From NCBI GenBank assembly GCA_035457345.1, contig DATIBT010000033.1, positions 2,390-66,389 on the forward strand: a stretch of 64,000 bases of DNA, written 5' to 3'. The notes beneath the pieces are model-generated. The model ran no database searches and was not told the origin of the DNA. It saw only the letters and a program-made list of their open reading frames with translations. Shown here piece after piece: positions 19,214 through 44,076 of the stretch (positions are counted from its first letter, which is position 1; each line of letters opens with the position of its first letter). Made by a program: the position numbers and the translations under genes. Origin of the DNA: Candidatus Saccharimonadales bacterium (lineage in GTDB: Bacteria > Patescibacteriota > Saccharimonadia > Saccharimonadales > EFPC-124).

Positions 19214-19285
19214 AATTATTCTATATTGTAGCTGATGACGCTTATGATTGCTATGCACCCCCACGCGTCAGGTATAATGTTCCCG

Positions 19286-26181: not shown

Positions 26182-26259
26182 CGGGGCGTGGCGCAGTCCG
26201 GTTAGCGCGCGCGGTTTGGGACCGCGAGGTCGAAGGTTCGAATCCTTTCGCCCCGACCA
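26182..26259 (+). tRNA. tRNA-Pro (anticodon TGG)
   Basis: Cloverleaf folded by eye: acceptor CGGGGCG/CGCCCCG with C1-G72 (a tRNA-Pro signature), D arm GCGC-AGTCCGGTTA-GCGC, anticodon loop TTTGGGA, T arm, discriminator A, encoded CCA. Confidence 0.88.
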
Positions 26260-29345: not shown

Positions 29346-29614
29346 TGATGTTATCCACAAAAAAGTTGCATGGTACCGTTCGGTATACCATAAGAATAGC
29401 CGGGGTGCTATGTGAAAAATTTATCATTCCACCCCTGTAGAACAAATCAAATTGAAGCCACAAAGAACCAATTTTACAAGATTGTTAAGTTAATGTAGTT
29501 TAGCATATACTGCGTGAGGCTCAATAATTTTGGTCTATGCAAGCCATGTATAGGCTTAGTTTTTGCTGCCAAAAAACTGTTTCTTCGTACCCAGCAATGG
29601 GGAAGGGAGTGAGC

Positions 29615-30160
29615 ATGCGGAACATGCTCAACAGGCTCAAGGGACGTACCGCGCTGCTGATCGCCGGTGCGGCCACCGCGGCGGCAATCGTCGGCGTGTC
29701 GGGCGGGGCGGCCTACGCGGTCATCACCGGCGCCACGTCCGGAACGGCCGTGCAGCATTCAATCGCCCGCAACGACACCGCGCTGCTGGTGCCCGGAGCA
29801 GCCAACACCTGGCAGACCGTCAGCGGCATGGTGCGGACCGTCTCGGTGCCGTCCGGCCAGCGGCGGCTGTTCATCGCCACGTACACCGCGGAGTCGCAGT
29901 GCACGGGCGGCAGCTGGTGCTCGGTGCGCATCGTGGTGCGCAACAACGCCACCGGCGCCGTGAGCGAGCTGTTGCCGGCCTCGGGCACGGACTACGCCTT
30001 CGACGCCCCGTCGACGGATCTGTGGGAAGGCCACGCCCGCACCCAGAGCACCAACTACCTGCCGGCGGGCAGCTACACCTTCTCCGTGCAGGCCAACCGG
30101 GTCGGCGGCAGCACGTTCCGCCTCGACGACATGCATTTCGAGGTCGTCGCGACCACCTGA
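29615..30160 (+). CDS. Secreted hypothetical protein encoded on a roughly 75% GC segment with actinobacterial-type codon usage
   Basis: RBS GGGAAGGGAG upstream of ATG 29615. Signal peptide MRNMLNRLKGRTALLIAGAATAAAIVGVSGGAAYA. Third codon positions almost all G/C. Two Cys; beta-rich; no recognisable family. Confidence 0.55.
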   Translation: MRNMLNRLKGRTALLIAGAATAAAIVGVSGGAAYAVITGATSGTAVQHSIARNDTALLVPGAANTWQTVSGMVRTVSVPSGQRRLFIATYTAESQCTGGSWCSVRIVVRNNATGAVSELLPASGTDYAFDAPSTDLWEGHARTQSTNYLPAGSYTFSVQANRVGGSTFRLDDMHFEVVATT

Positions 30161-30180
30161 CCCGCGGAGCAACAGTTGAA

Positions 30181-30213
30181 AGCCTCGGCCGCCCACCACG
30201 CGGGCGGCCGAGG
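30181..30213 (+). terminator. 13-bp GC-rich hairpin (gcctcggccgccc-accacgc-gggcggccgaggc) without U-tail, directly after the high-GC gene
   Basis: Perfect inverted repeat read in the sequence; this hairpin style is typical of high-GC Gram-positive terminators. Confidence 0.45.
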
Positions 30214-30243
30214 CCCCAACTATCCCCTGGCAGCCAGGTATTT

Positions 30244-31623
30244 ATGAGCAGTCCTCTTACGTTTACGCCGATTAAGCTTTACAATAGTGACATTATGCTT
30301 ATGTTTATTAAGCGCCTGTGGCACGACGCCGTACAGGGTGGCATTAAAGACAATGCCAGTGGCCCTCAGCGTGAGCTTGTCTATTTTATTAATGTGTATT
30401 CGTGGCTGGCTTTCTTGTCGTTGAGTGGTTTTGGCGTTCTGCACATTATCTCCGAAGGAAATCCGCAGTTAGGAAATCTTGAACTTCTTTGCGCCGCCGT
30501 TATCGTGTTGAATATGCTGGCACTGCGAGCCACCTACAACATTGCCATTGCTAGGTTTGGCCTCCTTGCCACTGTATTAACGGCACTCATTATTATGCTT
30601 ATGACCGGGGGCATGCAGAACACTGGCATTTTTTGGCTCTATGTATTCCCTGTCCTTGCATTCTTTTTGGCCGGGCGCCAAGGGGGTATTGCGTGGATGG
30701 CTGTGCTGTACGCAGCCATTTTCTTATTGTTCGCGCTTGAGAGGTACGAGTGGGTGGACATTCCGTATGCCCCTATTGTCTTGCGTCAGGCACTGATAAG
30801 CCTATTTGTGGTAACGATTGGCGTAGCCGTATATCAGCGCTCGCGCGATAAATATCAGAAAGAGGAGCAGGAAATTGATCAAGCTAAGAGCCAATTTGTG
30901 ACGCTGGCTTCGCACCAGCTCCGGACGCCCATTGCTGCGGTGAACTGGTTTGCAGAAATGCTCCTGAATGGCGATGCTGGCAAGCTCAACAAAGAGCAGC
31001 ACGATTACACGCGGCAGCTATACGCCAGCAACCGCCGGTTGTCTGGCATGGTAGATGTTATGCTACTTGTTTCCAGCCTGGAGCTCAATGAGTTGCGTAT
31101 TCGTTTGGAACCTACGGATATGGCGGCGTTGAGCCATCGGTCGTTAGAAGCGCAAATCCAAAAAGAGGGTAAGCACGACCTTCATATTGAAGAGCGGTAT
31201 GAAGATGGCTTGCCACGCATACGCGTAGACGCGCATGTCATGGGTATTATTATGCAGAATCTATTCTCGAACGCCCTTAAATATACTCCCAAAGGAGGCG
31301 CCGTAACAGTAACGATCAAGCGCAGCCCAGAGAAATTGACGATTGGCAGCAAGGGAAGCATAGAGATTGCGATAACAGATACAGGATACGGCATTCCTAC
31401 CTCACAACGGGACAAAGTGTTTGGCAAACTCTTCCGGGCAGATAATATAAAAATCAAAGACACTGACGGCACTGGCTTGGGGCTATATAGTGTGCGTGCC
31501 CTTTTATCGCAGGTGGGCGGCCGCATATGGTTTGAGTCCCAGGAAGACAAGGGCACGACGTTTTTTGTCCTTTTGCCTATTGAGGGTATGAAAAAACAAC
31601 ATGATTCCGAGGGAAAAAGGTGA
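30244..31623 (+). CDS. Sensor histidine kinase with N-terminal polytopic membrane sensor domain
   Basis: Six predicted TM helices, then HisKA (LASHQLRTPIAAVNWFAEML, phospho-His) and HATPase_c (N box NLFSNALKYTP, G1 DTGYGIP, G2 GTGLGLYSV). Start at ATG 30244 after the GC-rich segment. Confidence 0.85.
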   Translation: MSSPLTFTPIKLYNSDIMLMFIKRLWHDAVQGGIKDNASGPQRELVYFINVYSWLAFLSLSGFGVLHIISEGNPQLGNLELLCAAVIVLNMLALRATYNIAIARFGLLATVLTALIIMLMTGGMQNTGIFWLYVFPVLAFFLAGRQGGIAWMAVLYAAIFLLFALERYEWVDIPYAPIVLRQALISLFVVTIGVAVYQRSRDKYQKEEQEIDQAKSQFVTLASHQLRTPIAAVNWFAEMLLNGDAGKLNKEQHDYTRQLYASNRRLSGMVDVMLLVSSLELNELRIRLEPTDMAALSHRSLEAQIQKEGKHDLHIEERYEDGLPRIRVDAHVMGIIMQNLFSNALKYTPKGGAVTVTIKRSPEKLTIGSKGSIEIAITDTGYGIPTSQRDKVFGKLFRADNIKIKDTDGTGLGLYSVRALLSQVGGRIWFESQEDKGTTFFVLLPIEGMKKQHDSEGKR

Positions 31624-33524
31624 TGCATAAAGGTCTTTCATTACGGGTAAAACTTAGCTTGGCGTTTCTGTCGCTGGCCGTGCTAGTAGGCGCGGTGGGT
31701 GCGTTGCAAATTCAAACGCTCGAGCGCATAAGGACATTATTTGAAGACGTTATCACTGTTGATATTGGACGGCTAAACAAGATGCAGCTGGCTCACCAAC
31801 ACCTATTAGAGATGGAAGAAGAGCTTCTTCAGCATCAAATCGAAGGCACGGTGCCAGAGCACGGTGACGAAAAAGACGGTATTACCCACCAGGCCGAGGC
31901 AATCAAGAAAGAAATTAAAGAATATGCAGATTCCCCCCGGAATGGTGCGCCACTTGCACTAGATGTGGCGGCTACGAACGACACTATTGATAGGCTTGCC
32001 GCGCTTGCTCTCAGTTCAATTACGGCGACACACCATAACAACAAGGCACAAGCGCTCGCGGCCTTTGGTGAGTTCACTACGCTCCAAAGTCAGCTAGAAG
32101 GCGACATGGGACGAATCATTGCATCCGAGCGCGAGAGCATCTTAGGCGGCAGTGAGGAAGTAGTGGCAAGGATAAATGGGTTGGTCGCGACCGACATGCC
32201 CGTTGTGGGACTCATTATTGCGATAGCCGTGATCCTGGGGCTGTTGGTTGCCTCGCGTCTGACCAAGGCGCTCGCATTAGTCAGAAGAGGCGCTCAAGAC
32301 CTCGCCAATGGCAACTTGGCTAAGCGTGTCGAGGTGCGGTCCGGCGACGAGATCGGACAACTAGCCATGGCGTTCAACCAAATGGCTGATCGTTTGAGCG
32401 ATTCATACAGTCGCATCGCCCTGGAGGGTAAACGGGATGAAACTATTCTAGAGAGTTTAGGCGAAGGGCTTATTGCTCTCGATACTGACGCCCAGGTGGT
32501 GCTTATCAACTCTAAAGCGCTAGAGTTATTTGAGCTTTCAAGTCGCAACGGGGTTGTTGGCAAGAAGATTGCGAGCGCTGTGACCATCTATGGTGAGCAC
32601 GATGTTGTCTTGGAGCCCGAACAACACCCCGCCTTTGCTGTCCTGCAAACAGCTAAGCAGATTAACGAAAGCTACAGTTTTGTCCGTAAAGACGGGAAGA
32701 AAATTCTCATTAATATTATCGCCAGCCCGGTCCTGCTGGACGGAAAAGTTACCGGCGCAATTTTTGTTATCCGTGACGTCACCAAAGAGAAAGAGGTGGA
32801 CCGCATGAAGACCGAGTTTATCTCGCTCGCCTCCCACCAATTACGCACTCCCTTATCTGCCATTAAGTGGTTTACTGAGATGCTGGTGTCTGGCGATGCT
32901 GGAAAGCTTAATGCGGAGCAGTTGGATTTCGCTAAGAATGTAGCTGATTCTACAGAGCGCATGATTGAACTCGTTAATTCGTTGCTTAATATCTCCCGTA
33001 TTGAATCAGGACGCATTATTGTGGATCCTAAGCCAACCGACCTAAACGTTTTGGTGGGCGGCATTGTGAATGATCTTAAGGCTAAGACCGCTGAGCGGGA
33101 GCAGACACTCGTAGTCAGCATTCATAAGGATCTGCCTAAGATTAACCTTGACCCGCGATTAATCGGGCAGGTGTACATGAACTTTTTAACCAACGCCATA
33201 AAATACACGCCAAAGGGTGGTGAAATTACGGTGTTTGTCTCGCGCAAAGATGATGAGCTGGTGTCGCAGATATCTGACAACGGCTACGGTATCCCTAAGG
33301 CGCAGCAGGATAAATTATTCCAGAAGTTCTTTAGGGCCGACAATGTGTCGAAGGTGGAAACGGATGGCACCGGCCTTGGCTTGTACTTGGTGAAAGCAAT
33401 TATTGAATCGTCGGGCGGGCGTGTGTGGTTTAAGAGCGAAGAAAATAAAGGCACAACTTTTTGGTTTAGCTTGCCTATGAGCGGTATGAAAGCAAAGGAA
33501 GGGGAGGTTACGCTAGATGTCTAG
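31620..33524 (+). CDS. Sensor histidine kinase (TM-periplasmic-TM, HAMP, PAS, HisKA, HATPase_c)
   Basis: HAMP (LANGNLAKRVEVRSGDEIGQLAMAFNQMADRL), PAS-like segment, H box LASHQLRTPLSAIKWFTEML, N/G boxes (FLTNAIKYTP, DNGYGIP, GTGLGLYLV); ATGA overlap with the upstream HK. Confidence 0.88.
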   Translation: MMHKGLSLRVKLSLAFLSLAVLVGAVGALQIQTLERIRTLFEDVITVDIGRLNKMQLAHQHLLEMEEELLQHQIEGTVPEHGDEKDGITHQAEAIKKEIKEYADSPRNGAPLALDVAATNDTIDRLAALALSSITATHHNNKAQALAAFGEFTTLQSQLEGDMGRIIASERESILGGSEEVVARINGLVATDMPVVGLIIAIAVILGLLVASRLTKALALVRRGAQDLANGNLAKRVEVRSGDEIGQLAMAFNQMADRLSDSYSRIALEGKRDETILESLGEGLIALDTDAQVVLINSKALELFELSSRNGVVGKKIASAVTIYGEHDVVLEPEQHPAFAVLQTAKQINESYSFVRKDGKKILINIIASPVLLDGKVTGAIFVIRDVTKEKEVDRMKTEFISLASHQLRTPLSAIKWFTEMLVSGDAGKLNAEQLDFAKNVADSTERMIELVNSLLNISRIESGRIIVDPKPTDLNVLVGGIVNDLKAKTAEREQTLVVSIHKDLPKINLDPRLIGQVYMNFLTNAIKYTPKGGEITVFVSRKDDELVSQISDNGYGIPKAQQDKLFQKFFRADNVSKVETDGTGLGLYLVKAIIESSGGRVWFKSEENKGTTFWFSLPMSGMKAKEGEVTLDV

Positions 33525-33536
33525 GAGAATATCACA

Positions 33537-34298
33537 ATGAAACGGGCACGCTCGTTAGTACTATTTATACTACTGTTCAGCCTTATCTTGCCGGGGCTTA
33601 TGTGGTTTATGCCAGCCCCAGAAGTAAGCCGGTTTGGCCCCGATGGTTTTAAATTCCAGGCGGCTATAACAATGCTGCTTGCCTGGCTTCATGTAGGAGC
33701 GGCAATTTTGTTTGTGGCTGGGCTGGATGGATTTAAGGCAACGCTCAAGCGGGCGTACTTTGCTATATGTTTGGGATTGGTTGTAACGGCCGTTGCGGTT
33801 GCGCAGTTGCCATTGATCGCCATATTCAATTTATGGAATTCACCGTGGGCACTTAAAGGAGGCTTAACGCTGCCGATGATCGGTACGTTGTTGATATATG
33901 CTGGTGTTTACACGTTTGCAAGGGCGCTACAAATACGGCACGTGCCTACCTCGCCTTGGGTGGTGGTGCCGCTGTTTGTTGTAGCGGCAGGGGCGGTTGG
34001 CCTGGCCATGGACCCCTCTTTCGATCTCACTACTGCCGGCTACATAACAGGTCTTATACTGGGCACAGCAATAGTGTGGCTTACCTTCCGCATTAAGCAG
34101 ACGGCTGGGCCAGCCTACACAAATGCTCTTGCATGGTTTATGCTTCCGCCCCTGTTGAATACGTGCGGCGTGGGGCTGCTTATTATCTGGGCTCTAGCCA
34201 GAGAAGAGGCGCCTTGGTACGCAGCCATTCCTTTTGCATTTGTGGGCGCCTTGTATGTGAAGGCAGGGTACGCATTTAATAAGATTAAGGAGTATTAG
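33537..34298 (+). CDS. Polytopic membrane protein (paralog A)
   Basis: Seven or so hydrophobic helices; alignable with the protein at 34651 (e.g. FKATLKRAYFAICLGLVVTAVAVAQLPLIAIFNLWNSPW vs FKPTFKVAYLLLCAGVLCIGLGVVILPLITIFDPTESW). Confidence 0.5.
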   Translation: MKRARSLVLFILLFSLILPGLMWFMPAPEVSRFGPDGFKFQAAITMLLAWLHVGAAILFVAGLDGFKATLKRAYFAICLGLVVTAVAVAQLPLIAIFNLWNSPWALKGGLTLPMIGTLLIYAGVYTFARALQIRHVPTSPWVVVPLFVVAAGAVGLAMDPSFDLTTAGYITGLILGTAIVWLTFRIKQTAGPAYTNALAWFMLPPLLNTCGVGLLIIWALAREEAPWYAAIPFAFVGALYVKAGYAFNKIKEY

Positions 34299-34300
34299 GC

Positions 34301-34654
34301 ATGTCGTGGCTATCATCGTTCTTTGGCACCTCAGAAACTCGCCCCTCGACAAGTCCAGAAGGGGCGACGGCGGTAGATGTCATTACCTACCTTGCTTCGT
34401 TGGCTTCTAACCCTCGCGAGATTGACCCTATTCTAGACCGGCTTCGTGAAGTCACTGTCCGGCAAGGAAAAAATACCACATTAACAGAGGCTGATCAGGC
34501 CGCGCTGGCTGAAGTATTTCAGCAGCTCTTGCGCTATTTGGTAGAGCGGGAGCCGCTGCGTGCTTTTACTCGCGAGGAAATTTTAGCGAAGGTCCATGGG
34601 CAATTTAAACCTGCCCCAACCGAAACTGTATTTTGGGGAAAGGCGGGGTTATGA
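34301..34654 (+). CDS. Small soluble hypothetical protein between the two paralogous membrane proteins
   Basis: 117-aa ORF, tightly coupled (3-nt gap upstream, ATGA overlap downstream). Confidence 0.35.
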   Translation: MSWLSSFFGTSETRPSTSPEGATAVDVITYLASLASNPREIDPILDRLREVTVRQGKNTTLTEADQAALAEVFQQLLRYLVEREPLRAFTREEILAKVHGQFKPAPTETVFWGKAGL

Positions 34655-35451
34655 AAAGAATCGACCGATTATTATGGGCAATGGTAGCGATAGTGTTCGG
34701 GCTGTCATTGCTATCCCTGCTCATTCCTCAACCGTCAAGCAGCGTTGTAGACGTGCTTGCGTTCCACTTTGATTTGGCGCTGATACTCTTTGGCGCTGGC
34801 CTTTTTGTCCCGGCAGTTGTGCTGTTTGTGCGTGGCCTGCGCGGTTTTAAGCCAACGTTTAAAGTGGCTTATTTGTTACTGTGCGCCGGCGTGTTATGTA
34901 TTGGGCTGGGCGTAGTGATTTTGCCGCTGATAACTATTTTTGATCCTACCGAATCGTGGCGCAACAACCCCATAGTGGTAGTACTGCCCTTTATTGTCTC
35001 GGGCGCCTTGATTTATGCCGGCATGCTTTTATATGCTCGGCTTTTACAGGTGGCCAGTATTTGGTCTAAGCCGTGGTTTGTGCTGGCATTCATTCTGGGT
35101 GGCCTGGCCATTACCATTTTTTTGCCGCACGCAGACGTACCGGATGAAACCGCACTCGATGTATTAAATGCCATGGTAATGTGGGTAGGACTCTTTATTT
35201 TTGCGGCAGCCATGCTCATTATGGCTATTAAGCGCCAAACAAGTAGCATTTATACGAATAGTCTGGCTTGGCTGTTTTTTGCCTTAATAAGCAGTGTGCT
35301 TACGCCAGTGCTAACCGTGTTGTTTGGGCTGTTTGCATACGATGCATGGCTCAGCGATGCATTAGTGGATTTTTGTGTATTTATTTCGGGAGTGCTATAT
35401 ATGCGTTCTGGCTATGCATTCGTGCAGATTACGGCCCCAGATATTAACTAA
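34651..35451 (+). CDS. Polytopic membrane protein (paralog B)
   Basis: Start at ATG 34651 (ATGA overlap with the upstream stop, RBS-like GGGAAAGGCGGGG); paralogous to 33537..34298. Confidence 0.5.
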   Translation: MKRIDRLLWAMVAIVFGLSLLSLLIPQPSSSVVDVLAFHFDLALILFGAGLFVPAVVLFVRGLRGFKPTFKVAYLLLCAGVLCIGLGVVILPLITIFDPTESWRNNPIVVVLPFIVSGALIYAGMLLYARLLQVASIWSKPWFVLAFILGGLAITIFLPHADVPDETALDVLNAMVMWVGLFIFAAAMLIMAIKRQTSSIYTNSLAWLFFALISSVLTPVLTVLFGLFAYDAWLSDALVDFCVFISGVLYMRSGYAFVQITAPDIN

Positions 35452-35470
35452 GTTATGCTAAAGTAAAGGT

Positions 35471-35884
35471 ATGTCGAGAGAAAACCCAACCATTATGGTG
35501 GTGGAAGATGAGACTCTTCTGCTGCAAGCAATTACTAAAAAACTCAAATTATCCGGGCTTGACGTTGTCTCGTGCGCCAGTGGGCAGCAAGCGGTTGACT
35601 ACCTGAGTAACCTTGATGAACTCCCCGATGCCGTCTGGCTCGATTATTACCTGAAGGATATGAACGGGCTGGCATTCATGCAGACCCTCAAAGAGAATGC
35701 TAAATGGTCAGATATTCCAGTGATTGTGGTTAGCAACTCGGCTAGTCCGGAGAAGGTGCATAACATGCTGGGATTGGGCGCAAAGAAGTACATACTAAAG
35801 GCTGAATATCGTTTAGATGAAATTATCGAAATGATCCGCGACTTTATTAGGGACGGTAGCGACAGCAAGGAGGCAAAGAAGTAA
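35471..35884 (+). CDS. Stand-alone response-regulator receiver (CheY-like) protein
   Basis: REC domain only (137 aa): acidic pocket VVEDE, phospho-acceptor region AVWLDYYLKDMNG, conserved Lys in KKYILK. Confidence 0.8.
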   Translation: MSRENPTIMVVEDETLLLQAITKKLKLSGLDVVSCASGQQAVDYLSNLDELPDAVWLDYYLKDMNGLAFMQTLKENAKWSDIPVIVVSNSASPEKVHNMLGLGAKKYILKAEYRLDEIIEMIRDFIRDGSDSKEAKK

Positions 35885-36255
35885 TGGGCAAGGTATTGGT
35901 TATTGAGGATGACAAGTTTTTGGCAAGCGCGTACCGCGCCAAATTGACCAAGAGCGGGTTTGAAGTACAACTGGCTGGAGACGGCGAAGAAGGAATACAA
36001 ATGCTTGGCAGCTTCACGCCTGATATTATTTTGCTCGACCTTGTCATGCCTCGTAAGGACGGCTTTGCCACCCTCCCCGAAATCCGTAAGATTTTGAAAG
36101 ATGTGCCGGTAATTGTTACGTCTAATCTAGGGCAAAAAGAAGACCTCGATAAAGCCATGGCGCTTGGTGCTACTGACTACCTTATTAAGAGTGATCTTTC
36201 CATGGTTGCATTGATCAACAAAATAAACGACACCATAAAGCCCAGCTCTAGTTAA
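35884..36255 (+). CDS. Stand-alone response-regulator receiver (CheY-like) protein
   Basis: REC domain only (123 aa): VIEDD, DIILLDLVMPRKDG (phospho-Asp), TSNLGQ, ATDYLIK (conserved Lys); ATGA overlap with the upstream gene. Confidence 0.85.
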   Translation: MGKVLVIEDDKFLASAYRAKLTKSGFEVQLAGDGEEGIQMLGSFTPDIILLDLVMPRKDGFATLPEIRKILKDVPVIVTSNLGQKEDLDKAMALGATDYLIKSDLSMVALINKINDTIKPSSS

Positions 36256-36276
36256 GCTGGATAGGGAATACGCGGC

Positions 36277-37998
36277 ATGGTGGGCACCTACGCTGGTATA
36301 GATGACAAAAAGCTATACGATATTCTGAGCGAGCTTAATTATGTGCCCGAGGAAGAGCTCAAGCGAGCCCAGGCAATTGCAAGCGCTGAGAGTATCTCTT
36401 TATACGATGCCCTGCTAAAAAGTGACATTATATCCGACGAAAACCTAGGCAAGCTCATTGCCTATTCTTTGCAGTTACCGTTTACGTCGTTAGCACAAGC
36501 AAGCATTCCAGAAGACATACTTCACATTACCCCTCAGGCGGTGGCTGCGCAGTTTCATGTGCTCACATATGGCATGGACGAAGAGAAGGGTTTAAAGATT
36601 GCCGCCTCAAACCATTTGCAGACAGATGTATTTGACATGCTGGCTAAGAAAGCTGGCGTTAAGAACTACCGTGTCTTTTTTGCTACTGACCGAGATATAC
36701 AAGACGCCCTTCGATTGTACAAAAAAGAGTTAGGCCTGGCGTTTGAAAGTCTGCTTGCTTCTAAGACGGGGGACGTCCAGGTTGAAGTGCCGGTTGCGAA
36801 GATTGTGGATACGGTCATTGACTATGCTTATATTAACAAAGCTTCCGACGTGCATATTGAACCAACGCGCGGTGTGACCTTGGTGCGTTTTAGGATAGAC
36901 GGTATTTTGCATGACATGGTGCGTCTCCCTCATGCCACACATGGTCAGCTGGTAGCCCGTATTAAGGTGTTGGCACGCCTCCGTACAGATGAGCACTTTA
37001 GTGCCCAGGATGGCCGCATGCGAATGAGCGTGGAGCAAGAAGACCTCGACGTCCGCGTATCGATTGTGCCCACAGTAACGGGCGAGAAGGTGGTGCTTAG
37101 GTTGCTTTCCAGCCACAACAGGCAGTTTAGCTTAACGGATTTAGGCATGGGCGAAGCCGATCTTAAAAAGATCCGCGCCGGATTTATGCGTCCATTTGGC
37201 ATGGTTATGTCTACCGGGCCAACAGGATCGGGTAAGACCACCAGTATGTACGCTATCTTAAAGATCTTAAACACGCGCGAAAAAAATATTGCCACCATTG
37301 AAGATCCAGTTGAATACGAAATTGACGGTATTAACCAGATTCAGGCAAACCCCAAAACCAATCTGACATTTGCGAACGGCTTACGGTCGCTGCTTCGCCA
37401 AGACCCTGACATTATGTACGTTGGTGAAATCCGCGACGAAGAGACCGCCGACATTGCCATTAATTCTGCCATGACCGGCCACCTCGTGCTATCTACCCTC
37501 CACACAAACAATGCAGCCACGACGCTGCCACGGTTGATGGACATGAAGATTGAGCCGTTCTTGGTCGCAAGCACGGTGAACGTTATTATTGGCCAGCGTT
37601 TGGTGCGCAAAATCTGCGATCGCTGCCGGGTGAGTTTTGAGCTTAAAAAGACAGAGCATGGCTGGCACGGTGAAGAAGAGGCAACGGCAACGCAGCTCTC
37701 CCACATAGACCCTAAGCAACTGTCCCGGCACTTTGGCGACGGGTCGAGTGTGCGATTGTATAAAGGCAAGGGGTGTAATGTGTGCCACGAAACAGGCTAC
37801 CGGGGCCGCGTGGGAATCTTTGAAGTGCTAGAGGTGTCGCCAAAAATTGAGGCGCTTATTACCCAAAAGGCAGATGCCGATGCCATCTTACAGCAAGCAA
37901 TAAGCGAAGGTATGACGACCATGATGGACGACGGCTTAGATAAGGTGCAACAAGGCATTACGACCGTCGGTGAGATAATGAGGGCGACCCGGGCATGA
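36277..37998 (+). CDS. Second PilB/GspE-family secretion ATPase
   Basis: GSPII_E_N-like N-domain, Walker A GPTGSGKTT, His box, tetracysteine CDRCR...CNVCHETGYRGR; paralog of the pilB at 17417. Confidence 0.9.
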   Translation: MVGTYAGIDDKKLYDILSELNYVPEEELKRAQAIASAESISLYDALLKSDIISDENLGKLIAYSLQLPFTSLAQASIPEDILHITPQAVAAQFHVLTYGMDEEKGLKIAASNHLQTDVFDMLAKKAGVKNYRVFFATDRDIQDALRLYKKELGLAFESLLASKTGDVQVEVPVAKIVDTVIDYAYINKASDVHIEPTRGVTLVRFRIDGILHDMVRLPHATHGQLVARIKVLARLRTDEHFSAQDGRMRMSVEQEDLDVRVSIVPTVTGEKVVLRLLSSHNRQFSLTDLGMGEADLKKIRAGFMRPFGMVMSTGPTGSGKTTSMYAILKILNTREKNIATIEDPVEYEIDGINQIQANPKTNLTFANGLRSLLRQDPDIMYVGEIRDEETADIAINSAMTGHLVLSTLHTNNAATTLPRLMDMKIEPFLVASTVNVIIGQRLVRKICDRCRVSFELKKTEHGWHGEEEATATQLSHIDPKQLSRHFGDGSSVRLYKGKGCNVCHETGYRGRVGIFEVLEVSPKIEALITQKADADAILQQAISEGMTTMMDDGLDKVQQGITTVGEIMRATRA

Positions 37999-39035
37999 GC
38001 ATGAGGCTCTCGCGCAAAGAGAAATTGGCCGTTATATCCAGCCTTGCTACCATGCTTAATTCGGGCATCTCCATTCTGGAAGCCGTCGACACTCTGTTAG
38101 AGGACAATAAGGGGAGCTCACGTCGTCTCTTGTTACTATTCAGAGAGGCATTGAACGACGGCCACATGCTATCGACTGCCATGGAAAAAGCGACTGGCGT
38201 ATTTGACCCGGTAGACATAAACCTCATACGTGCCGCCGAAGAAGCGGGCACGCTCGACGAGGCACTGCACGATCTCACGCAGACCATTAAAAAAGACATG
38301 GCGTTTAGCGACAAAATTCGCGGCAGCCTTTTGTATCCAGTCTTTATTATGGTCATTTTTTTTGGTGTGTTGATTATGATATTGACCTTTGTGGTGCCCC
38401 GCATGTCAAAGGTCTTCTCTAGCCTCAGGGTTGACCTGCCTGCGCCGACTAAGTTTCTGATTGAGCTGTCCAATTTTATCTTAGCGAATTGGATATATCT
38501 GGTGGTTGTGGCGGTGGTGGCCGCGGTATTGTTGGTGCTATTTTATAAAACACAGAAGAAGCTGCTTTTTAACGCGCTGTCGCGTTTGCCACTATTTAAC
38601 ACATTGGCACAGCATATTGATTTCACCCGGTTCACTCGCAGTATGGCATTACTGCTGCGGGCGGGCGTGCCGGTCGCAGAGGCGCTCGATTTATCCCAAA
38701 AAGTTGTCATACGGCACGACGTAAGTCACGCCATTGCCCGTATGAAACAAGGGGTGAACACTGGCCACCCTATGTCCGAGGGGCTGAAGGCATCGCATAT
38801 TGCACCCTCGATCATGGTGCACATTTTACAGACCGCCGAACACAGTGGCACACTCGAAAAGACCATGCAGGAGCTTTCCGAGTATTTTGAAACTCAAGTG
38901 GCGCGCCGCTTAAAGGCAATCACTACGCTTATAGAACCGGTGCTGATTGTAGTGATTGGTGTGTTGGTGGGCGGCATGATGATGGCGGTAATTGCACCAA
39001 TCTATAACATCATAAGCCAAATTGGCTCGAGGTAG
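37995..39035 (+). CDS. Second PilC/GspF-family platform protein
   Basis: Two GspF-type repeats with TM segments, 346 aa; ATGA overlap with the upstream ATPase gene. Confidence 0.85.
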   Translation: MSMRLSRKEKLAVISSLATMLNSGISILEAVDTLLEDNKGSSRRLLLLFREALNDGHMLSTAMEKATGVFDPVDINLIRAAEEAGTLDEALHDLTQTIKKDMAFSDKIRGSLLYPVFIMVIFFGVLIMILTFVVPRMSKVFSSLRVDLPAPTKFLIELSNFILANWIYLVVVAVVAAVLLVLFYKTQKKLLFNALSRLPLFNTLAQHIDFTRFTRSMALLLRAGVPVAEALDLSQKVVIRHDVSHAIARMKQGVNTGHPMSEGLKASHIAPSIMVHILQTAEHSGTLEKTMQELSEYFETQVARRLKAITTLIEPVLIVVIGVLVGGMMMAVIAPIYNIISQIGSR

Positions 39036-39529
39036 TGGCTATGCATGTGCCACGCTCCAGCGCCAGGCAGCCAGGGTTTACGCTCGTTGAGCTTTTGCTT
39101 GTTATGGGGCTGGTGGCGGTCCTTGCCGGAATAACATCGGTTAACCTGTTCAGCCCGCAAACCAAAGCCAACATAAACAGCCTAACAGACCGGCTTGCCG
39201 CAGATATTAAGAGCCAACAAATCAAGGCCATGTCTGGTGACAGTATGAGCGCCAGCGCGGCACAGGAGCACGGCGTGTATATCCAAACTGGCACCTACAC
39301 TCTATTTAAAGGGACAGCTTATAGTGGTGCAGATACCGATAATATCCCCATTGCCAGCGAAGGCGGCGTCACGCTCAGCACTACCTTTCCGTCTACACAG
39401 GTGGTATTCGACAAGGGCAGCGGCGAAGTCATTGGCTTCACGAACGGCTCAAATACTATTACACTCAGCGGTTCGGGGGAAACAAAAACAATAACCATTA
39501 ACCGTTACGGGGCGGTGACGGTCAACTGA
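39035..39529 (+). CDS. Pseudopilin / minor pilin (GspH/FimT-like)
   Basis: Prepilin motif RQPGFTLVELLLVMGLVAVLAGI; 164 aa. Confidence 0.7.
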   Translation: MAMHVPRSSARQPGFTLVELLLVMGLVAVLAGITSVNLFSPQTKANINSLTDRLAADIKSQQIKAMSGDSMSASAAQEHGVYIQTGTYTLFKGTAYSGADTDNIPIASEGGVTLSTTFPSTQVVFDKGSGEVIGFTNGSNTITLSGSGETKTITINRYGAVTVN

Positions 39530-39530
39530 T

Positions 39531-42002
39531 ATGTATAAGCAGCGCGGACAAACAATCATTGAGCTTCTGGTGGCGATAGGCATTTCAGCCATTATGTTGC
39601 CTGCGCTCGCTACTGCAGTGTTTGCGTCACGCGAGGGGCGGGCGCAAGATGCTGAACGCCTTCAGGCGGCAGCGTTATTGCGAGAGACTGATGAAGCGGT
39701 TCGTTCTGTGCGCGAAAAGGGGTGGGCCGCCTTCGCCGTTAACGGTACATACCATCCAGCCATAAATATAGCGGCATGGAACTTAGTCGCAGGGTCGGAG
39801 GTGGTGGGTAACTTTACACGCCAGGTGGTGATATCAGACGTGCAGCGTAATGCGGCTGGAGCCATTGTACCGAGTGGGGGTACGATTGACCAATCGACTA
39901 AAAAAGTAACGACAACGGTGTCATGGTCACAGCCAATGAACGGGTCGCTTAGCACTGAAACGTACTACCAACGCTATCTGGGTAATGCTGCCTGGGCACA
40001 GACAACTCAGGCTGAATTTAACGCGGGAACCAAAACTAATACAACCGCAACCTCTACCGGGGACGGCCAAGTTGAATTGGCCGGTGGCGGAGGCGGAAGC
40101 CACGTGCAGACAGCCGGCTCTAATAATGATGCTAGCGCCACGACTATCGCACAAGCCCTTCCGGCAAATGTGAACGGCGAGAGCTTAATTGTCGCAAGCA
40201 TATCTTGGGATACCACTTCTTCTACTACAGTTACCTGTTCTGATAATCAGAATAATACCTATACTACCGTCGTTAATATTAACGACACGACTAATACCCA
40301 GGCGCTGGCAATTTGTTACGCATCGAATGTCCCAGCTGCGGCTACTACTGTTACTGCTACGTTTGGCGCCGCATCTACACTACGTCGAATCACGGTAAGC
40401 GAGTACAGTGGCGTGGCGGCCGTGGTGCCGGTGGATGTGAGCAAAACAAACATTGCCAACGGTACAACGGCCACAGATAACATTACTAGTACTGCCGCCA
40501 CAACTACGGCTGCAAACGACCTTATTTACGGTGCAGTGGTCGAAACATCGGCAGGGACGGCGACGATCACGGGCGGCACCGGCTTTACGCAACGCAATAC
40601 AAATGCTACCGATACGACGCTTGCGGTGCAGGATCGTATTTTAGGGACTGCTGGCTCTACCTCCTCGACACACACCTTCAGTGCTGCTCTCAGATATGCC
40701 GCAGGGATGGTGGCATTCAAGACGAAGTCGTCAACGGCCAATTGGGCTTCTCCTTCTGTTGGCGGCACGTATGATGCGAGCGGTACTCAGGATGCGCTCG
40801 ACGTATTTACTGCAGGTAACTACGCCTATTTATGTAACGGTTCGGTACTGACGATTTTGAATATCTCAAACCCGACCTCGCCAACGTTGGTCGGTACCTA
40901 CACGGCGTCATCAACGGTGCGGCATGTGTACGTTGATGGTAATTACGCTTATTTATCAACGGCAAGTGATACTGCCGAGCTCACTATTGTAAACATAACA
41001 AATCCCGCAAGCCCGACCCTTGCTTCGTCGGTCAACCTAACCGATACCAACGACGGCTTCGCAACATTTGTAACCGGTGGATACGCCTATGTTGGCCGCG
41101 CTCTCGACACAACCACAGGAACGAATGAATTCTACATTTTAAATGTTACCAATCCTGCCAGTCCTTCCGTATTGGGCAGCGTCAACTTAACCGGCGCAGT
41201 AAACAACATAAAAGTAAGTGGCAACTTCGCTTTTTTGGCAACTACTATTGATACGCAAGAGATGGTGGTCATTAATGTTACCAACAAAAGTTCGCCCACA
41301 TTGTCGACGAGTTACAACGCCGCAGGCACGTCAGATGCTAACGATCTTGGTATCCTGGGGACCGTCTTATACGTGGCAACAGTAGCCAATGCCTCTGGCG
41401 CCGAGGTGTTCGCACTTAATATAACTACGCCAACCTCACCGGCACTTTTAGGCACATACGAAACGGGGGCAAACGTAACCGGTGTTTCGGCAGTTCCTAA
41501 TAATTTGTTTTTATCGGTAGCGAATCAGCTGACGGTGTTGAATAATTCCAATCCGAGTAGTTTGCAGCTAAGGTCAACATTGGGCTTTGGGTCCCCGGCT
41601 AACGACGTTAAAGCCTGGGGCGATTATGTGTACGTCGCTACTGCCAGTAATACGCAGGAGATGGTGATTGTGGCGCCAACATTTGCGTCGAGCGGGTATG
41701 CGACGTCGGGTAGTTTTGATTCATCTACATTCGATGCCGGTGCTAGCGCGGCGTTTAACTATCTTACCTTTACGATCACAGAGCCGGCGAGTACCAACAT
41801 CAGCTTCCAGCTTGCCACTAACAACGATAACGCAACGTGGAACTATGTAGGCCCAGACGGTACGGCCTCTACCTTCTATACCTCGGCTCAGACCATACGC
41901 CTGAATACCGTTGGCCGTTATTTACGGTACAGAGCCGCCTTTACGGGACCGGGCACGTCGACCCCGGTGTTAAGTGACATATCGATAAACTATTCGCCAT
42001 GA
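39531..42002 (+). CDS. Giant prepilin-like protein with LVIVD-type beta-propeller repeats (putative pilus tip or surface adhesin)
   Basis: N-terminus MYKQRGQTIIELLVAIGISAIMLPAL (class III signal with Glu5). C-terminal half carries six or more repeats of the LVIVD pattern (GNYAYL...LTILNISNPTSPTLVGTY; TIVNITNPASPTL; YILNVTNPASPSVLGSV; VVINVTNKSSPTLSTSY; VFALNITTPTSPALLGTY; LTVLNNSNPSSLQL). Confidence 0.7.
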   Translation: MYKQRGQTIIELLVAIGISAIMLPALATAVFASREGRAQDAERLQAAALLRETDEAVRSVREKGWAAFAVNGTYHPAINIAAWNLVAGSEVVGNFTRQVVISDVQRNAAGAIVPSGGTIDQSTKKVTTTVSWSQPMNGSLSTETYYQRYLGNAAWAQTTQAEFNAGTKTNTTATSTGDGQVELAGGGGGSHVQTAGSNNDASATTIAQALPANVNGESLIVASISWDTTSSTTVTCSDNQNNTYTTVVNINDTTNTQALAICYASNVPAAATTVTATFGAASTLRRITVSEYSGVAAVVPVDVSKTNIANGTTATDNITSTAATTTAANDLIYGAVVETSAGTATITGGTGFTQRNTNATDTTLAVQDRILGTAGSTSSTHTFSAALRYAAGMVAFKTKSSTANWASPSVGGTYDASGTQDALDVFTAGNYAYLCNGSVLTILNISNPTSPTLVGTYTASSTVRHVYVDGNYAYLSTASDTAELTIVNITNPASPTLASSVNLTDTNDGFATFVTGGYAYVGRALDTTTGTNEFYILNVTNPASPSVLGSVNLTGAVNNIKVSGNFAFLATTIDTQEMVVINVTNKSSPTLSTSYNAAGTSDANDLGILGTVLYVATVANASGAEVFALNITTPTSPALLGTYETGANVTGVSAVPNNLFLSVANQLTVLNNSNPSSLQLRSTLGFGSPANDVKAWGDYVYVATASNTQEMVIVAPTFASSGYATSGSFDSSTFDAGASAAFNYLTFTITEPASTNISFQLATNNDNATWNYVGPDGTASTFYTSAQTIRLNTVGRYLRYRAAFTGPGTSTPVLSDISINYSP

Positions 42003-42496
42003 TACAACATGCTAACCAAAAAGGCTTTACTCTTGCCGAACTCCTCATTGTCATGGGGCTTATGTCGATGTTCATGTTGGTGCTGACCGATGTGTTTACG
42101 GCGGCAGTGACAGTACGGAGTGAGTCAGAGGCAACGTCTGCCGTGGCGAATGACGGACGGTTTTTATTATCTCGTCTCAGCTACGATATTGAATGTGCCA
42201 GCTCGATTACCACCCCTGCCAGTTTAGGGGCGAGCGGCGCCAGTCTTGCAATGGTCATAGACGGCGTGACGCATACCTACGCACTTTCGGGCGGAAACTT
42301 ACAGCTCACCAATAACCTCGGCACGAATAATCTTAACGGCAGTGAAACCACCATATCCGGTCTTACTTTTCAACGACTCGGCAACGCCGGTGGCAAAGAT
42401 ACGATACGGCTAAGTCTGACTGTTACGAGCGACGCCATCCGCGAAGGCGGATCGCCAGAAGCCGAAACATTCACCACTACTGTGGGGAGGCGGTGA
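41999..42496 (+). CDS. Pseudopilin / minor pilin (PilW/GspJ-like)
   Basis: Prepilin motif NQKGFTLAELLIVMGLMSMFMLVL; ATGA overlap with the upstream gene. Confidence 0.7.
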   Translation: MIQHANQKGFTLAELLIVMGLMSMFMLVLTDVFTAAVTVRSESEATSAVANDGRFLLSRLSYDIECASSITTPASLGASGASLAMVIDGVTHTYALSGGNLQLTNNLGTNNLNGSETTISGLTFQRLGNAGGKDTIRLSLTVTSDAIREGGSPEAETFTTTVGRR

Positions 42497-42885
42497 TGAA
42501 AAGGAGTACTACGCATGCGCAGTCTGGTCAGGCGCTCGTGGCGCTGCTCTGCTTTATGGCTATGGCCATTACCATCACGACCGCTGCGGTTATCGTGACG
42601 CTGGTCAATGCCCAAACAACCTCCAAATATACATTAGGCCAAGAGACGCTTAGTATTGCTGAGTCAGGCATCGATAATGCTATGCTCCGGCTGGCTCGCG
42701 ACCCTGCATATACCGGGGAGACGCTGACGGTCGGGAACGGAACTGTTACAATAACCGTAAGCGGTTCACCCACTATAACCATTACTTCGGTTGGTACTAT
42801 GGGCAATTTCCGCAGGACGATAGAGGCTACTGCCTCTAGGACCAATAACACGCTCGTAATCTCGAGCTGGAAAGAAACGCCATAG
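42493..42885 (+). CDS. PilX/GspK-like minor pilin
   Basis: Hydrophobic N-terminal helix without Glu5 (SGQALVALLCFMAMAITI) followed by SIAESGIDNAML (PilX_N-like AEaG motif). Confidence 0.5.
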   Translation: MMKRSTTHAQSGQALVALLCFMAMAITITTAAVIVTLVNAQTTSKYTLGQETLSIAESGIDNAMLRLARDPAYTGETLTVGNGTVTITVSGSPTITITSVGTMGNFRRTIEATASRTNNTLVISSWKETP

Positions 42886-42886
42886 C

Positions 42887-43444
42887 ATGATTTTCCAGAA
42901 TAACCCTACTGTTGCTTTGCATGTCACCCGCGAGGGGCTGACCGGCTATACTAAATCTGGTAAAAATGGCCATAGCCAAAAGTTGTCGTTTCCGCCAGAA
43001 GTAGTGCGCAACCTAGAAGTAGTAGACCAGCCGCAGCTCGCCAAGCTCGTTGCAACATTTGCAGCCGAAAATAAACTGCACGGCCAGCGGGTGGTCATTT
43101 TATTGGACGATTCCGTTATTTTCCAAAAGATCGTGCCGGCGGCGGAGGAAATAAAACAGCCGGGGGTAGTGGCAGATTTCGAGCATAAAGTGCCATTCGA
43201 TCCCGAAAAGCGGCGAGTGATCACCCTGCACCCTAAAGACCAGCTCGTCATTCTTGGCACGAATAGAGTGTTGTACGAGACGATTGCTACCGCCCTCCAG
43301 ACCGTCGGTGCAAAAGTGTTGGCTGCTGCTCCTATGGCAATTTATGGGAAGGGCAAAGGGGGGCAATTAAATCGTGAAACCCTCGCACCGGTGTTAAACG
43401 ACACTCGCAGGGCAGAGGCTGCAAATTTCTTGCACGTCAATTAA
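42887..43444 (+). CDS. Hypothetical cytoplasmic protein in the pilus-like operon (possibly a truncated PilM/GspL-like assembly factor)
   Basis: No TM; the N-terminus VALHVTREGLTGYTK weakly resembles the PilM N-terminal strand-loop; speculative. Confidence 0.3.
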   Translation: MIFQNNPTVALHVTREGLTGYTKSGKNGHSQKLSFPPEVVRNLEVVDQPQLAKLVATFAAENKLHGQRVVILLDDSVIFQKIVPAAEEIKQPGVVADFEHKVPFDPEKRRVITLHPKDQLVILGTNRVLYETIATALQTVGAKVLAAAPMAIYGKGKGGQLNRETLAPVLNDTRRAEAANFLHVN

Positions 43445-43501
43445 TTGACTTAACGACCGAGTCAGGTAATATTAAGAGTAGAGTAAAAAGGGTATGCTTT
43501 T

Positions 43502-43975
43502 ATGCAAATTGCGAACAGGCAAAAGGGCTTTACATTAATTGAAGTGCTTGTGGTGATCGGTATCCTCGCGGTACTGCTCGCATTAGTGTTAATTGCGGTG
43601 AATCCGCGGCAACACTTTATACAGGCCAATAACACACAGCGGCGTTCAGATGCTAACGCAATCCTGAATGCTATTGGGTCGTACATGTCCCAAAACAAGG
43701 GCCAATTGCCAGCTGGTATCGATGGGACGGTCAGGACAATTACATCGACCGCTGGAGCTAGCAACATTAACTTGTGTACTGCTTTGGTGCCCACCTATAT
43801 TGCTGACATTCCGTTAGACCCAGTCACCGGCACCGAGACTCCCGCCGGTTCACAGTGTACAACGGGTGGTGCTACCTATAGTAGTGGCTACACGGTAACA
43901 ACGACCGGTGGTAACCGAGTCACCGTAGCTGCGCCAGCTGCCGAGAACGGCGAAACAATTAGCGTTACCCGCTAA
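43502..43975 (+). CDS. Type IV pilin (likely the major pilin of the second system)
   Basis: RQKGFTLIEVLVVIGILAVLLALVLIAV canonical prepilin leader; RBS-containing 57-nt gap before it; terminator after it. Confidence 0.85.
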   Translation: MQIANRQKGFTLIEVLVVIGILAVLLALVLIAVNPRQHFIQANNTQRRSDANAILNAIGSYMSQNKGQLPAGIDGTVRTITSTAGASNINLCTALVPTYIADIPLDPVTGTETPAGSQCTTGGATYSSGYTVTTTGGNRVTVAAPAAENGETISVTR

Positions 43976-43992
43976 CAAGACGCACAACTAAA

Positions 43993-44028
43993 TGACCCCG
44001 AGCACTTGCCGCCCGGGTCATTTTTTAT
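43993..44028 (+). terminator. Hairpin (tgacccc...gggtca) followed by TTTTTTATT; intrinsic terminator after the pilin gene
   Basis: Imperfect 7-bp stem plus a T6 run read in the sequence. Confidence 0.45.
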
Positions 44029-44076
44029 TCCGGCGATACCTGGCTGAACTACTGAAAATGCGCTACACTAACTGAT

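Follow-up and report, generated by a model that had tools for sequence, protein, structure and literature searches.

The window analysed here, a 64,000-nucleotide stretch of a Candidatus Saccharimonadales genome (assembly GCA_035457345.1, contig DATIBT010000033.1), carries at 30295-43975 a run of genes in which two sensor histidine kinases (HK1 and HK2), two related membrane proteins (MP1 and MP2) and two stand-alone receivers (REC1 and REC2) are followed by the ATPase (PilB), the platform (PilC) and the pilins of a pilus machine. We consider this locus to be, probably, the Saccharimonadales version of an ancient operon from the candidate phyla radiation (CPR), in which a two-component system with stand-alone receivers controls a type IVa-like pilus motor post-translationally. 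The conserved core of the operon consists of one HAMP/PAS kinase, REC1, REC2, PilB, PilC and a five-pilin block, and a MASE6 kinase is frequent. The features of the locus are listed below.

30280-30285 (+): putative operon-promoter −10 box, TACAAT, predicted 9 nt 5′ of the HK1 ATG
30295-31623 (+): HK1, multi-pass membrane sensor histidine kinase of 442 aa, counted from the corrected start; MASE6, HisKA and HATPase_c (Pfam)
31620-33524 (+): HK2, sensor kinase; extracytoplasmic four-helix-bundle-like sensor (weak, 4HB_MCP/TarH-type), HAMP, PAS, HisKA and HATPase_c
33537-34298 (+): MP1, N-terminal helix plus seven-transmembrane (7TM) receptor-like membrane protein, 253 aa; no Pfam family
34301-34654 (+): small cytoplasmic partner of the membrane proteins, 117 aa; no Pfam or PDB match
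34651-35451 (+): MP2, paralogue of MP1 (~30% identity), 266 aa; no Pfam family
35471-35884 (+): REC1, stand-alone receiver (CheY/RR468-like), 137 aa; Response_reg only
35884-36255 (+): REC2, second stand-alone receiver, 123 aa, 30% identical to REC1; Response_reg only
36277-37998 (+): PilB-type extension ATPase, 573 aa; T2SSE (E 1e-123), MshEN-like N-terminal domain, CxxC...CxxC motif
37995-39035 (+): PilC/GspF-type platform, 346 aa; two T2SSF matches (PF00482, E 7e-49)
39035-39529 (+): minor pilin 1 (pil1), G/FTLVE; N_methyl; orthologues at the equal position 42-58% identical
39531-42002 (+): 823-aa prepilin with an LVIVD beta-propeller, G/QTIIE; N_methyl and LVIVD (E 1e-32)
41999-42496 (+): minor pilin 3 (pil3), G/FTLAE; N_methyl; orthologues 43-63% identical
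42493-42885 (+): pX, pilin-like protein without Glu5, G/QALVA, at the PilX/GspK-type position; orthologues 51-65% identical
42887-43444 (+): u185, soluble 185-aa protein, 30-37% identical across syntenic loci; no Pfam family
43445-43473 (+): pilA promoter-like site TTGACT-N17-TAATAT, within the 57-nt gap, with the leader AGTAAAAAGG next
43502-43975 (+): PilA, major pilin candidate, 157 aa, G/FTLIE; N_methyl (E 9e-10)
~43990-44030 (+): intrinsic-terminator-like hairpin and T-run closing the locus; −17 kcal/mol, then TTTTTTATT

Organization of the locus

The 15 open reading frames (ORFs), all confirmed in the window, lie head to tail on the plus strand. Re-measurement of their 14 junctions gave 4-nt overlaps at HK1/HK2, small protein/MP2, PilB/PilC, LVIVD/pil3 and pil3/pX, 1-nt overlaps at REC1/REC2 and PilC/pil1, and gaps of 1, 1, 2, 12, 19 and 21 nt elsewhere, apart from the 57 nt that precede pilA. 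In Pfam, both kinases matched HisKA and each receiver was a single domain; PilB and PilC were identified along with four N_methyl prepilins (39035-39529, 39531-42002, 41999-42496 and 43502-43975), with a fifth pilin-like protein besides. An initial sequence-only reading of the window had proposed a compact unit of two kinases, two receivers and pilus genes, in which the widest spacing, 57 nt, precedes the final pilin gene and a terminator stands at the end. The ORFs, junctions and Pfam matches agree with the former description, and the junction measurements together with the hairpin and T-run agree with the latter. The domains for which that reading had proposed a search (GspE/GspF-type, N_methyl, HisKA, Response_reg and LVIVD) were all found. 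Hairpins occur at the matching position after pilA in L001, L004, L008 and L010 (L-numbers denote the compared loci and contigs, drawn from metagenomes and genome collections; all sequences are from metagenome-assembled genomes (MAGs) and metagenome contigs).

Promoter-like and terminator-like matches inside genes were counted as noise, with the exception of two sites that are conserved in other loci. The start of HK1, previously placed at 30244, is most likely the ATG at 30295, because HK1 homologues in the closest loci are 411-441 aa long and the TACAAT box falls downstream of 30244. The same box lies upstream of HK1 in L004, L008 and L009, with no conserved −35 box found; it stands 6-9 nt before the ATG taken as the HK1 start in the window and L009, and ~30 nt before the called start in L004 and L008. 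In the 57-nt gap before pilA, the second site has counterparts of the form TTGAC[AT]-N17-TATnnT in L001, L005, L008 and L010, and TTGAAC in L004; the leader next to it appears as AGTAAAAAGGTAATG in L001, L004 and L005 and as AGAAAAGGTAATA in L009, and is missing in L008 and L010. Since the gap holds this conserved, predicted sigma70-like promoter, pilA is probably also transcribed alone, and the earlier proposal of a single transcript is probably true only in part.

Conservation of the gene order across Patescibacteria

The full order is kept in the Saccharimonadales contigs L001, L004, L005, L008, L009 and L010 and in a JGI contig, at protein identities to the window of only 26-87%. REC1 is the best-conserved gene (72-87% among syntenic loci); the corresponding values are 68-73% for REC2, 64-73% for PilB, 50-53% for PilC, 45-60% for the kinases, 26-42% for the membrane proteins and 48-70% for PilA, which is high for a pilin. 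Close relatives of MP1 are few (19 in a word-indexed search), and their contigs repeat the locus order: a MASE6 kinase, a HAMP/PAS kinase, between one and three membrane proteins accompanied by small proteins, a pair of receivers, PilB (~566 aa), PilC (~344 aa) and pilins, among them an LVIVD protein of 600-820 aa, with three small proteins and a pilin last. Similarly, L008, L009 and L010 show kinase(s), two receivers, PilB, PilC, a pilin, the LVIVD pilin, a pilin, two small proteins and a final pilin. The locus PilB has numerous relatives at 57-74% identity, among them proteins of Saccharimonadales on contigs of 0.7-1.2 Mb and, at ~60%, of Daviesbacteria, Woesebacteria and Curtissbacteria; L008, L009 and L010 belong to the contigs found in this way.

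Because REC1 is the best-conserved and most central gene, it was chosen as the anchor for a wider survey. A scan of one genome per GTDB species with the REC1 alignment yielded at least 360 relatives, of which the best 79 loci were taken with 10-kb flanks and annotated by crude ORF calling and hidden Markov models trained on seven syntenic loci; in this set, "LVIVD" matches scoring under ~90 reflect the pilin N-terminus only. The record titles name Saccharimonadales, Woesebacteria, Amesbacteria, Levybacteria and Daviesbacteria, although several contigs are clearly mis-binned and carry implausible names. Of the 70 loci that contain a REC1-clade gene, 69 have a kinase before REC1 on the matching strand, and REC2 follows REC1 directly in 56. 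Where more than 3 kb of sequence lies downstream (62 loci), PilB comes no further than 1.5 kb after REC1 in 39, followed by PilC and pilins. Elsewhere the linkage is rearranged: in L018, L027 and L028 the pilus genes lie upstream of the kinases, and in L035, L069 and L072 the orientation is divergent.

A separate Pfam check of the Woesebacteria locus L042 gave a MASE6 kinase, a Cache/HAMP/PAS kinase, two receivers, a MshEN-T2SSE ATPase, a T2SSF platform and then a pilin block made up of an N_methyl protein, a 621-aa protein, a second N_methyl protein, a small protein and, last, an N_methyl pilin. The genes of L042 adjoin at 0-25 nt, except for 62 nt in front of the final pilin. In distant lineages, 17-21 nt separate REC2 from PilB. 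With the core locus defined as a HAMP/PAS kinase, REC1, REC2, PilB, PilC, a pilin, a large pilin, two further pilins and pilA, the window matches at every position; the same core is shared by L001, L004, L005, L008-L010, L025, L039, L042, L045, L051 and L052, among others, and also by L058, L064, L066, L070 and L075. The gene order is thus kept in Saccharimonadales and in Microgenomates, that is, in at least two CPR classes, which argues that the arrangement is ancient and conserved and no oddity of this genome.

In a neighbour-joining distance tree of PilB, drawn without support values, the window locus groups with the PilBs of the fully syntenic Saccharimonadales and of Microgenomates (clade 1; 48-74% identity). 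A second clade, 39-41% identical to the locus PilB, comprises the receiver-linked PilBs of many soil Saccharimonadales, whose REC1 proteins are 80-88% identical to that of the window; the other PilB of the window, encoded in a separate operon described below, stands apart at 40-42%. The receiver pair is therefore kept before two PilB clades that are only ~40% identical, and we argue from this that the linkage itself is under selection. Upstream neighbours are partly shared within clade 1: TsaE, RNase Y and YmdB are common to the window, L009 and L025, and L008 has YmdB only.

These results extend the sequence-only reading in one respect and correct it in two. The gene-order search that it had proposed in other genomes found a coupling of signalling and pilus genes far beyond chance, recurring in Saccharimonadales and Microgenomates. 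Its view of the locus as an unusual, extra "second" machine does not hold, as its PilB falls, at 48-60% identity, in one clade with those of Woese-, Ames-, Levy- and Daviesbacteria. Likewise, the pair of kinases with a pair of membrane proteins, which it had taken as the layout, is lineage-specific, and the core has one HAMP/PAS kinase. That two unrelated operons were simply packed side by side in a small, gene-dense genome is highly improbable: genes in the compact genomes of the CPR are commonly separated by short distances, but the order is kept across lineages at 30-60% protein identity and across two PilB clades, and the linkage is retained in the rearranged blocks.

Receivers, kinases and the membrane-protein module

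Both receivers retain the residues expected of phosphoacceptors. In seven aligned loci, E12, D13, D58, S88 and K110 of REC1 and D9, D10, D52, S80 and K102 of REC2 are invariant, giving each protein an acidic pocket, a phospho-Asp, a Thr/Ser and a Lys; residues R114-I119 in alpha5 of REC1 are invariant as well. The best PDB relatives of REC1 are CheY and RR468. The kinases, for their part, carry the H-box and catalytic domains, both being of the HisKA plus HATPase_c class I. Orthologues of HK1 occupy the equal position in L001, L004, L008 and L009 at 45-52% identity. The nearest NCBIfam models to HK2 are WalK (307 bits), PnpS and PhoR, all scoring far under their cut-offs.

The membrane proteins and their small partner form a lineage-specific insert that is confined to Saccharimonadales. 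The number of membrane-protein copies is zero in L008 and L009, one in L004, two in the window and L001, and three in L005 and L010. Scans with the membrane-protein alignment returned nothing from GTDB genomes and two loci only from JGI, an artefact of the narrow pattern, as divergent homologues are present in many of the GTDB REC1 loci. A profile search of 1.84 billion representative sequences gave 616 clusters, with lengths of either ~265 aa or ~360-395 aa, the longer group being fusions with the small domain at either end. In L010 (3477-9096), three proteins of 375-389 aa are membrane proteins fused to the small protein, and because of this fusion we regard the two as one functional unit. 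Fusions of 350-400 aa were seen in L010, L011, L014, L032, L043, L044 and L048, and they are also scattered near kinase-receiver modules without an adjacent PilB. Two candidate affiliations were rejected: homology of the membrane proteins to the MASE6 sensor of HK1 (hhalign probability 0.5%), and a winged-helix identity of the small protein, whose best Pfam match, Trans_reg_C at E 0.11, is noise and which had no PDB match.

The pilus motor and its pilins

The motor is T4aP-like (type IVa pilus-like). The best solved relatives of the locus PilB are the T4aP PilBs of Geobacter and Myxococcus, and in NCBIfam it scores 491.5 bits to T4aP PilB (TIGR02538; cut-off 675.65) against 491.0 bits to GspE (cut-off 630). 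With the two scores tied and PilB as the solved relatives, the suggestion that this ATPase is of the type II secretion (T2SS) or competence (Com) type rather than T4aP-like is not supported. PilC is polytopic with two T2SSF repeats, as expected of a T4aP platform; it scores 246 bits to GspF (cut-off 424) and ~200 bits to PilC, both under cut-off, and is 28% identical to the other PilC of the window (16194-17414), with ~55 fewer N-terminal residues. The MshEN (PF05157) match of the locus PilB is 36 bits. We take the cyclic di-GMP motif of MshEN to be a tandem RLGxxLLxxGLIxxxxLxxxLxxQ; the Arg/Gly positions of the locus PilB, read by eye, are KLYDILSELNYV and SLYDALLKSDII. Set against this motif they look degenerate, and control by cyclic di-GMP through MshEN was judged unlikely.

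Class III signal peptides, read by eye, are present in four proteins at minor-pilin positions (G/FTLVE, G/QTIIE, G/FTLAE and G/QALVA, the last without Glu5) and in one major pilin (G/FTLIE). The LVIVD prepilin has orthologues of 600-846 aa at the equal position in the syntenic Saccharimonadales contigs, and by analogy with PilY1 and with PilX2 of the saccharibacterium TM7x it may be a tip adhesin; the large protein at that position in the Microgenomates locus L042 gave no LVIVD match in Pfam. The earlier labels GspH-, GspJ- and PilX-like for the small pilins hold for the N-terminal helix only: NCBIfam scores are 30 bits for GspH (cut-off 80) and 16 bits for GspK (cut-off 130), and pil3, the "GspJ-like" protein, has no specific NCBIfam match. 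Two or three tandem pilA copies occur in the related loci L019, L020, L024, L036 and L057. In the window, one further pilin stands outside the locus and is possibly a second subunit of its filament:

26347-26808 (+): orphan pilA paralogue (44% identity), ~3.5 kb 5′ of HK1 and directly after tRNA-Pro (26182-26259)

In Microgenomates, homologues of u185 reach 340-370 aa and carry, in addition, a transmembrane helix and a LytR_C domain. Their layout recalls, we infer, bitopic assembly-platform proteins such as GspL, and these longer proteins may be a lineage-specific replacement for assembly proteins of the PilM/N/O or GspL type. Profile comparison of u185 with PilM was negative, and the fold resemblance is weak and of low confidence (poor model, unspecific fold matches). 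Microgenomates pilus operons end in such a gene in L042 (17390-18475), L052 (11565-12677), L069 (3643-4662) and L035 (10045-11085).

Neither the locus nor the rest of the 64-kb window encodes PilT, PilD or another prepilin peptidase, and PilM-PilN-PilO, absent from the locus, occur within the window only in the other pilus operon (9535-11746). Pfam thereby bears out the earlier statement that the locus itself lacks PilM/N/O, PilT and a prepilin peptidase. Its description as a complete machine overstates the case, since no peptidase, retraction ATPase or alignment proteins are encoded in cis. The locus is T4aP-like, yet lacks PilD, PilT and PilMNO in cis. The peptidase and retraction ATPase may be encoded elsewhere in the genome, beyond the window, and a third pilus ATPase locus, with PilT and PilD, may exist in this organism.

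The machine could also have a different function, namely that of a short endopilus for T2SS-like protein secretion or Com-like DNA uptake, gated by the signalling module. PilC, pilA, pil1 and pX score best to GspF, GspG, GspH and GspK, PilT is missing from the locus, "T2SS" genes have been ascribed to Saccharibacteria in papers, and in TM7x (Nanosynbacter lyticus) a third GspE-like ATPase gene, TM7x_02335, lies outside the four type IV pilus (T4P) loci. Every Gsp match is nevertheless under its cut-off (GspG 32 bits against 89, besides those given above), most cover the N-terminal helix only, and the locus has no GspC, GspD, GspL or GspM. The locus PilB ties between PilB and GspE and has a long N-domain that ComGA lacks; its ComGA score is 238 bits (cut-off 300), that of the platform to ComGB 151 (240), and the major pilin gene comes last, not first. 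The 823-aa propeller pilin and a well-conserved major pilin with a strong promoter of its own fit a surface filament better, and TM7x mutants in T4P-2 stay competent. We therefore rate an endopilus as distinctly unlikely.

Comparison with known systems

Within the phylum, the closest described systems are the T4P of TM7x and Southlakia epibionticum, which share a T4aP-like PilB/PilC with the locus (PMC12206443, PMC10633639). In TM7x, the beta-propeller pilin PilX2 and PilA2 mediate host binding (PMC12206443). TM7x locus three, with pilA2, pilX2, pilW2, pilV2 and pilZ2, resembles the window locus in being a five-pilin block with a beta-propeller pilin, but it lies apart from its ATPase and platform. 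From TM7x locus one the window locus differs in the absence of pilT, pilMNO and pilD. TM7x locus two, the machinery of the thin host-binding pilus, resembles the other operon of the window in that both adjoin recA-recX. No kinases or receivers are described with the pilus genes in the TM7x and Southlakia papers, and any correspondence between the window locus and particular TM7x pilus loci is only a lead.

In order, the locus resembles T2SS and Com operons, where ATPase, platform and pilins also follow one another without PilMNO or PilT in cis; it differs from them in the long N-domain of its ATPase, unlike ComGA, and in a minor pilin with an 800-aa propeller. Two-component or chemotaxis-like control of pili is known from other bacteria. 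The Pil-Chp system of Pseudomonas aeruginosa comprises PilG/PilH, ChpA, PilJ and PilI, and in Synechocystis phototaxis, CheY-like and PatA-type receivers act on PilB1. As in those systems, the locus has two stand-alone, CheY-like receivers for which we propose a post-translational action on the extension/retraction machinery, one of them possibly as an antagonist. Unlike Pil-Chp, its kinases are orthodox HisKA proteins and its receivers are encoded directly before pilB in one operon. Pfam detected no CheA-type kinase, MCPsignal, CheW, Hpt or methylation enzyme in the locus, and for want of CheA, a methyl-accepting chemotaxis protein (MCP) and CheW it is not a member of the Pil-Chp family. The likeness of the receivers to PilG/PilH, pointed out in the initial reading, can thus be retained as functional only.

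PilS-PilR, in turn, are encoded beside pilA in Pseudomonas and Myxococcus, and in Geobacter within the cluster pilB-pilT-pilC-pilS-pilR-pilA. PilS senses pilin in the membrane, and PilR is an NtrC-type sigma54 activator with AAA+ and helix-turn-helix (HTH) domains. The locus shares with this system a two-component system inside a pilus cluster and a multi-pass membrane kinase (HK1, with its multi-helix MASE6 domain). It is not PilS-PilR, because it has no NtrC-type regulator: REC1 and REC2 consist of Response_reg alone, with no output domain, and the pilA promoter looks sigma70-like.

A model for control of the pilus motor

We propose that the kinases would sense surface or membrane cues, HK2 through its extracytoplasmic sensor with HAMP and PAS and HK1 through the membrane-embedded MASE6 domain, with the 7TM receptor-like proteins and their small partner adding inputs in the Saccharimonadales lineage. 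HK1 and HK2 would phosphorylate REC1 and REC2, a transfer suggested by the conserved residues of both receivers. As REC1 and REC2 both lack an output domain, they must act through contacts with other proteins, and the likeliest targets are PilB, perhaps at its MshEN-like N-domain, or PilC, since the receiver genes stand directly before pilB-pilC in most genomes. Receivers acting on PilB or PilC would switch extension on or off, and one of the two may serve as an antagonist or phosphate sink. The motor would polymerise PilA, made from its own strong promoter, and assembly would begin on a primer of the four minor-pilin-type proteins, with the LVIVD propeller at the tip as a presumed adhesin, by analogy with the proteins named above. 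Prepilin peptidase, any retraction ATPase and PilMNO-type proteins would be supplied from elsewhere in the genome, and u185 may be the cytoplasmic remnant of a bitopic accessory protein.

Several observations weigh against this proposal. Roughly a third of the REC1 loci with enough downstream sequence have no PilB within 1.5 kb, so that the module can function in trans or have other targets: the kinase-REC1-REC2 set stands without an adjacent PilB in L032 (complete genome CP025011), L040, L043, L044, L048, L061, L062, L068, L077 and L078; Roizmanbacteria loci are among those with none nearby. The families nearest to HK2 control the envelope or phosphate, not pili. Finally, the separate promoter of pilA means that transcription could be controlled as well, by a route that is not visible here. 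The same three points favour another explanation, in which the two-component system controls transcription or the envelope in the manner of WalK or PhoR through an unlinked partner (a DNA-binding protein or a partner-switching module), the separate pilA promoter could be the regulated step, and the pilus operon is a mere target or neighbour. The kinase matches are far below family thresholds, however, the receivers have no DNA-binding domain, and Pfam found no transcription factor encoded in the locus; moreover, the short REC2-PilB junction recurs in distant lineages and the linkage survives the exchange of one PilB clade for the other. On this balance we regard control of transcription or envelope as unlikely, and post-translational control of the motor as the better account.

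A broader form of the motor-control model is more speculative, and we put it forward tentatively, as less probable than the model itself. Here, the phosphorylated receivers would bind PilB/PilC and set the choice between a motile, host-seeking state and an attached state; the phosphorelay would be ancestral to much of the CPR, and the 7TM receptor-like proteins of Saccharimonadales, as a family not recognised before, would with their cytoplasmic partner feed host-contact signals into it.

The other pilus operon and neighbouring genes

The separate pilBCA-minor pilin-pilMN(O) operon noted in the initial reading is real and occupies 9535-19264 on the minus strand. It encodes a PilB of 615 aa (40% identical to the locus PilB), PilC, PilA and three minor pilins, one of 522 aa with a CarboxypepD_reg domain, together with PilM, PilN and, at the PilO position, one more protein. 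The adjoining genes are recA (5446-6501, plus strand) and recX (6527-7129, plus strand).

Other genes in the surroundings of the pilus loci are given below, together with one from a syntenic contig.

874-3459 (−): surface protein, 861 aa, Big_7/fn3/CarboxypepD_reg
7678-9237 (+): surface protein, 519 aa, two lamin-tail domains
26805-28687 (−): pyruvate phosphate dikinase/PEP-utilising enzyme as two overlapping ORFs, PPDK_N (27905-28687) and PEP-utilizers (26805-27968)
29537-30216 (+): 207-aa ORF without a Pfam match, in a GC-rich stretch with long ORFs overlapping in other frames
30181-30216: hairpin, −43.6 kcal/mol, no T-run, between the 207-aa ORF and the operon promoter
44077-46704 (+): 875-aa fusion of GATase_7 and Asn_synthase (glutamine-dependent asparagine synthase), directly 3′ of the locus
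53128-53718 (+): sortase, a further surface gene
54676-56205 (−): 509-aa protein, N-terminal Cro/C1-type HTH with an EPSP-synthase/MurA-type enolpyruvyl transferase
L001, 1-2268 (−): SpvB/TcdB/RHS-type toxin gene, 2536 aa, ~3 kb upstream of the syntenic locus (148-kb contig, GCA_040383985.1)

A frameshift or a pseudogene could account for the two dikinase ORFs, as could a gene that is truly split. The C-terminus of the 875-aa fusion matches an F420-0:gamma-glutamyl-ligase-like domain at 24 bits, just under cut-off. The 509-aa protein is unusual in joining a DNA-binding domain to a cell-wall/shikimate enzyme fold, and the toxin gene of L001 would be unusual cargo for a reduced CPR genome if that contig is really from the CPR.

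Significance for Patescibacteria

The initial reading had held that the arrangement is not a described one, and we found no paper that describes it, within incomplete coverage of the literature. Kinases, response regulators and two-component systems go unmentioned in Grossman 2025, Wang 2023, Xie 2022 and a 2024 PNAS perspective, and a full-text search for CPR pilB/pilC together with histidine kinase, response regulator or CheY, covering part of the journals, returned nothing relevant. The HK-REC1-REC2-PilB-PilC operon is therefore apparently undescribed. Two-component control of pili is itself known; what appears to be new is that stand-alone receivers are encoded directly before the motor genes and that a large radiation has conserved this arrangement. 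Taken one by one, the genes are ordinary, and they are present in public genomes; the interest of the locus is in their conserved linkage, which addresses a stated gap and can be tested in existing genetic systems. The membrane-protein/small-protein family, with ~600 clusters, a 7TM fold and no Pfam model, offers a further lead, towards a class of bacterial receptors.

In the few Patescibacteria in culture, finding a host and attaching to it either require type IV pili or centrally involve them, and CPR genomes have very few regulators at all. One of the closest published statements is that CheY-like genes are ~2-fold commoner in sediment-enriched than in planktonic MAGs of ultra-small (CPR and DPANN) organisms (PMC9938205). 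Regulation of pilus extension and retraction is named as an open question in the TM7x study (PMC12206443), and by the field's own account nothing is known of the control of extension/retraction or of the swarmer-to-attached transition (PMC12206443, PMC11665869). Because its gene order recurs widely across the CPR, the operon is a good candidate for pilus control in these epibionts: a kinase and two receivers before pilB, from Saccharibacteria to Woesebacteria, make it a concrete and genetically testable one. If the proposal is true, these cells would possess a compact, classical two-component system with a molecular motor, not a promoter, as its output.

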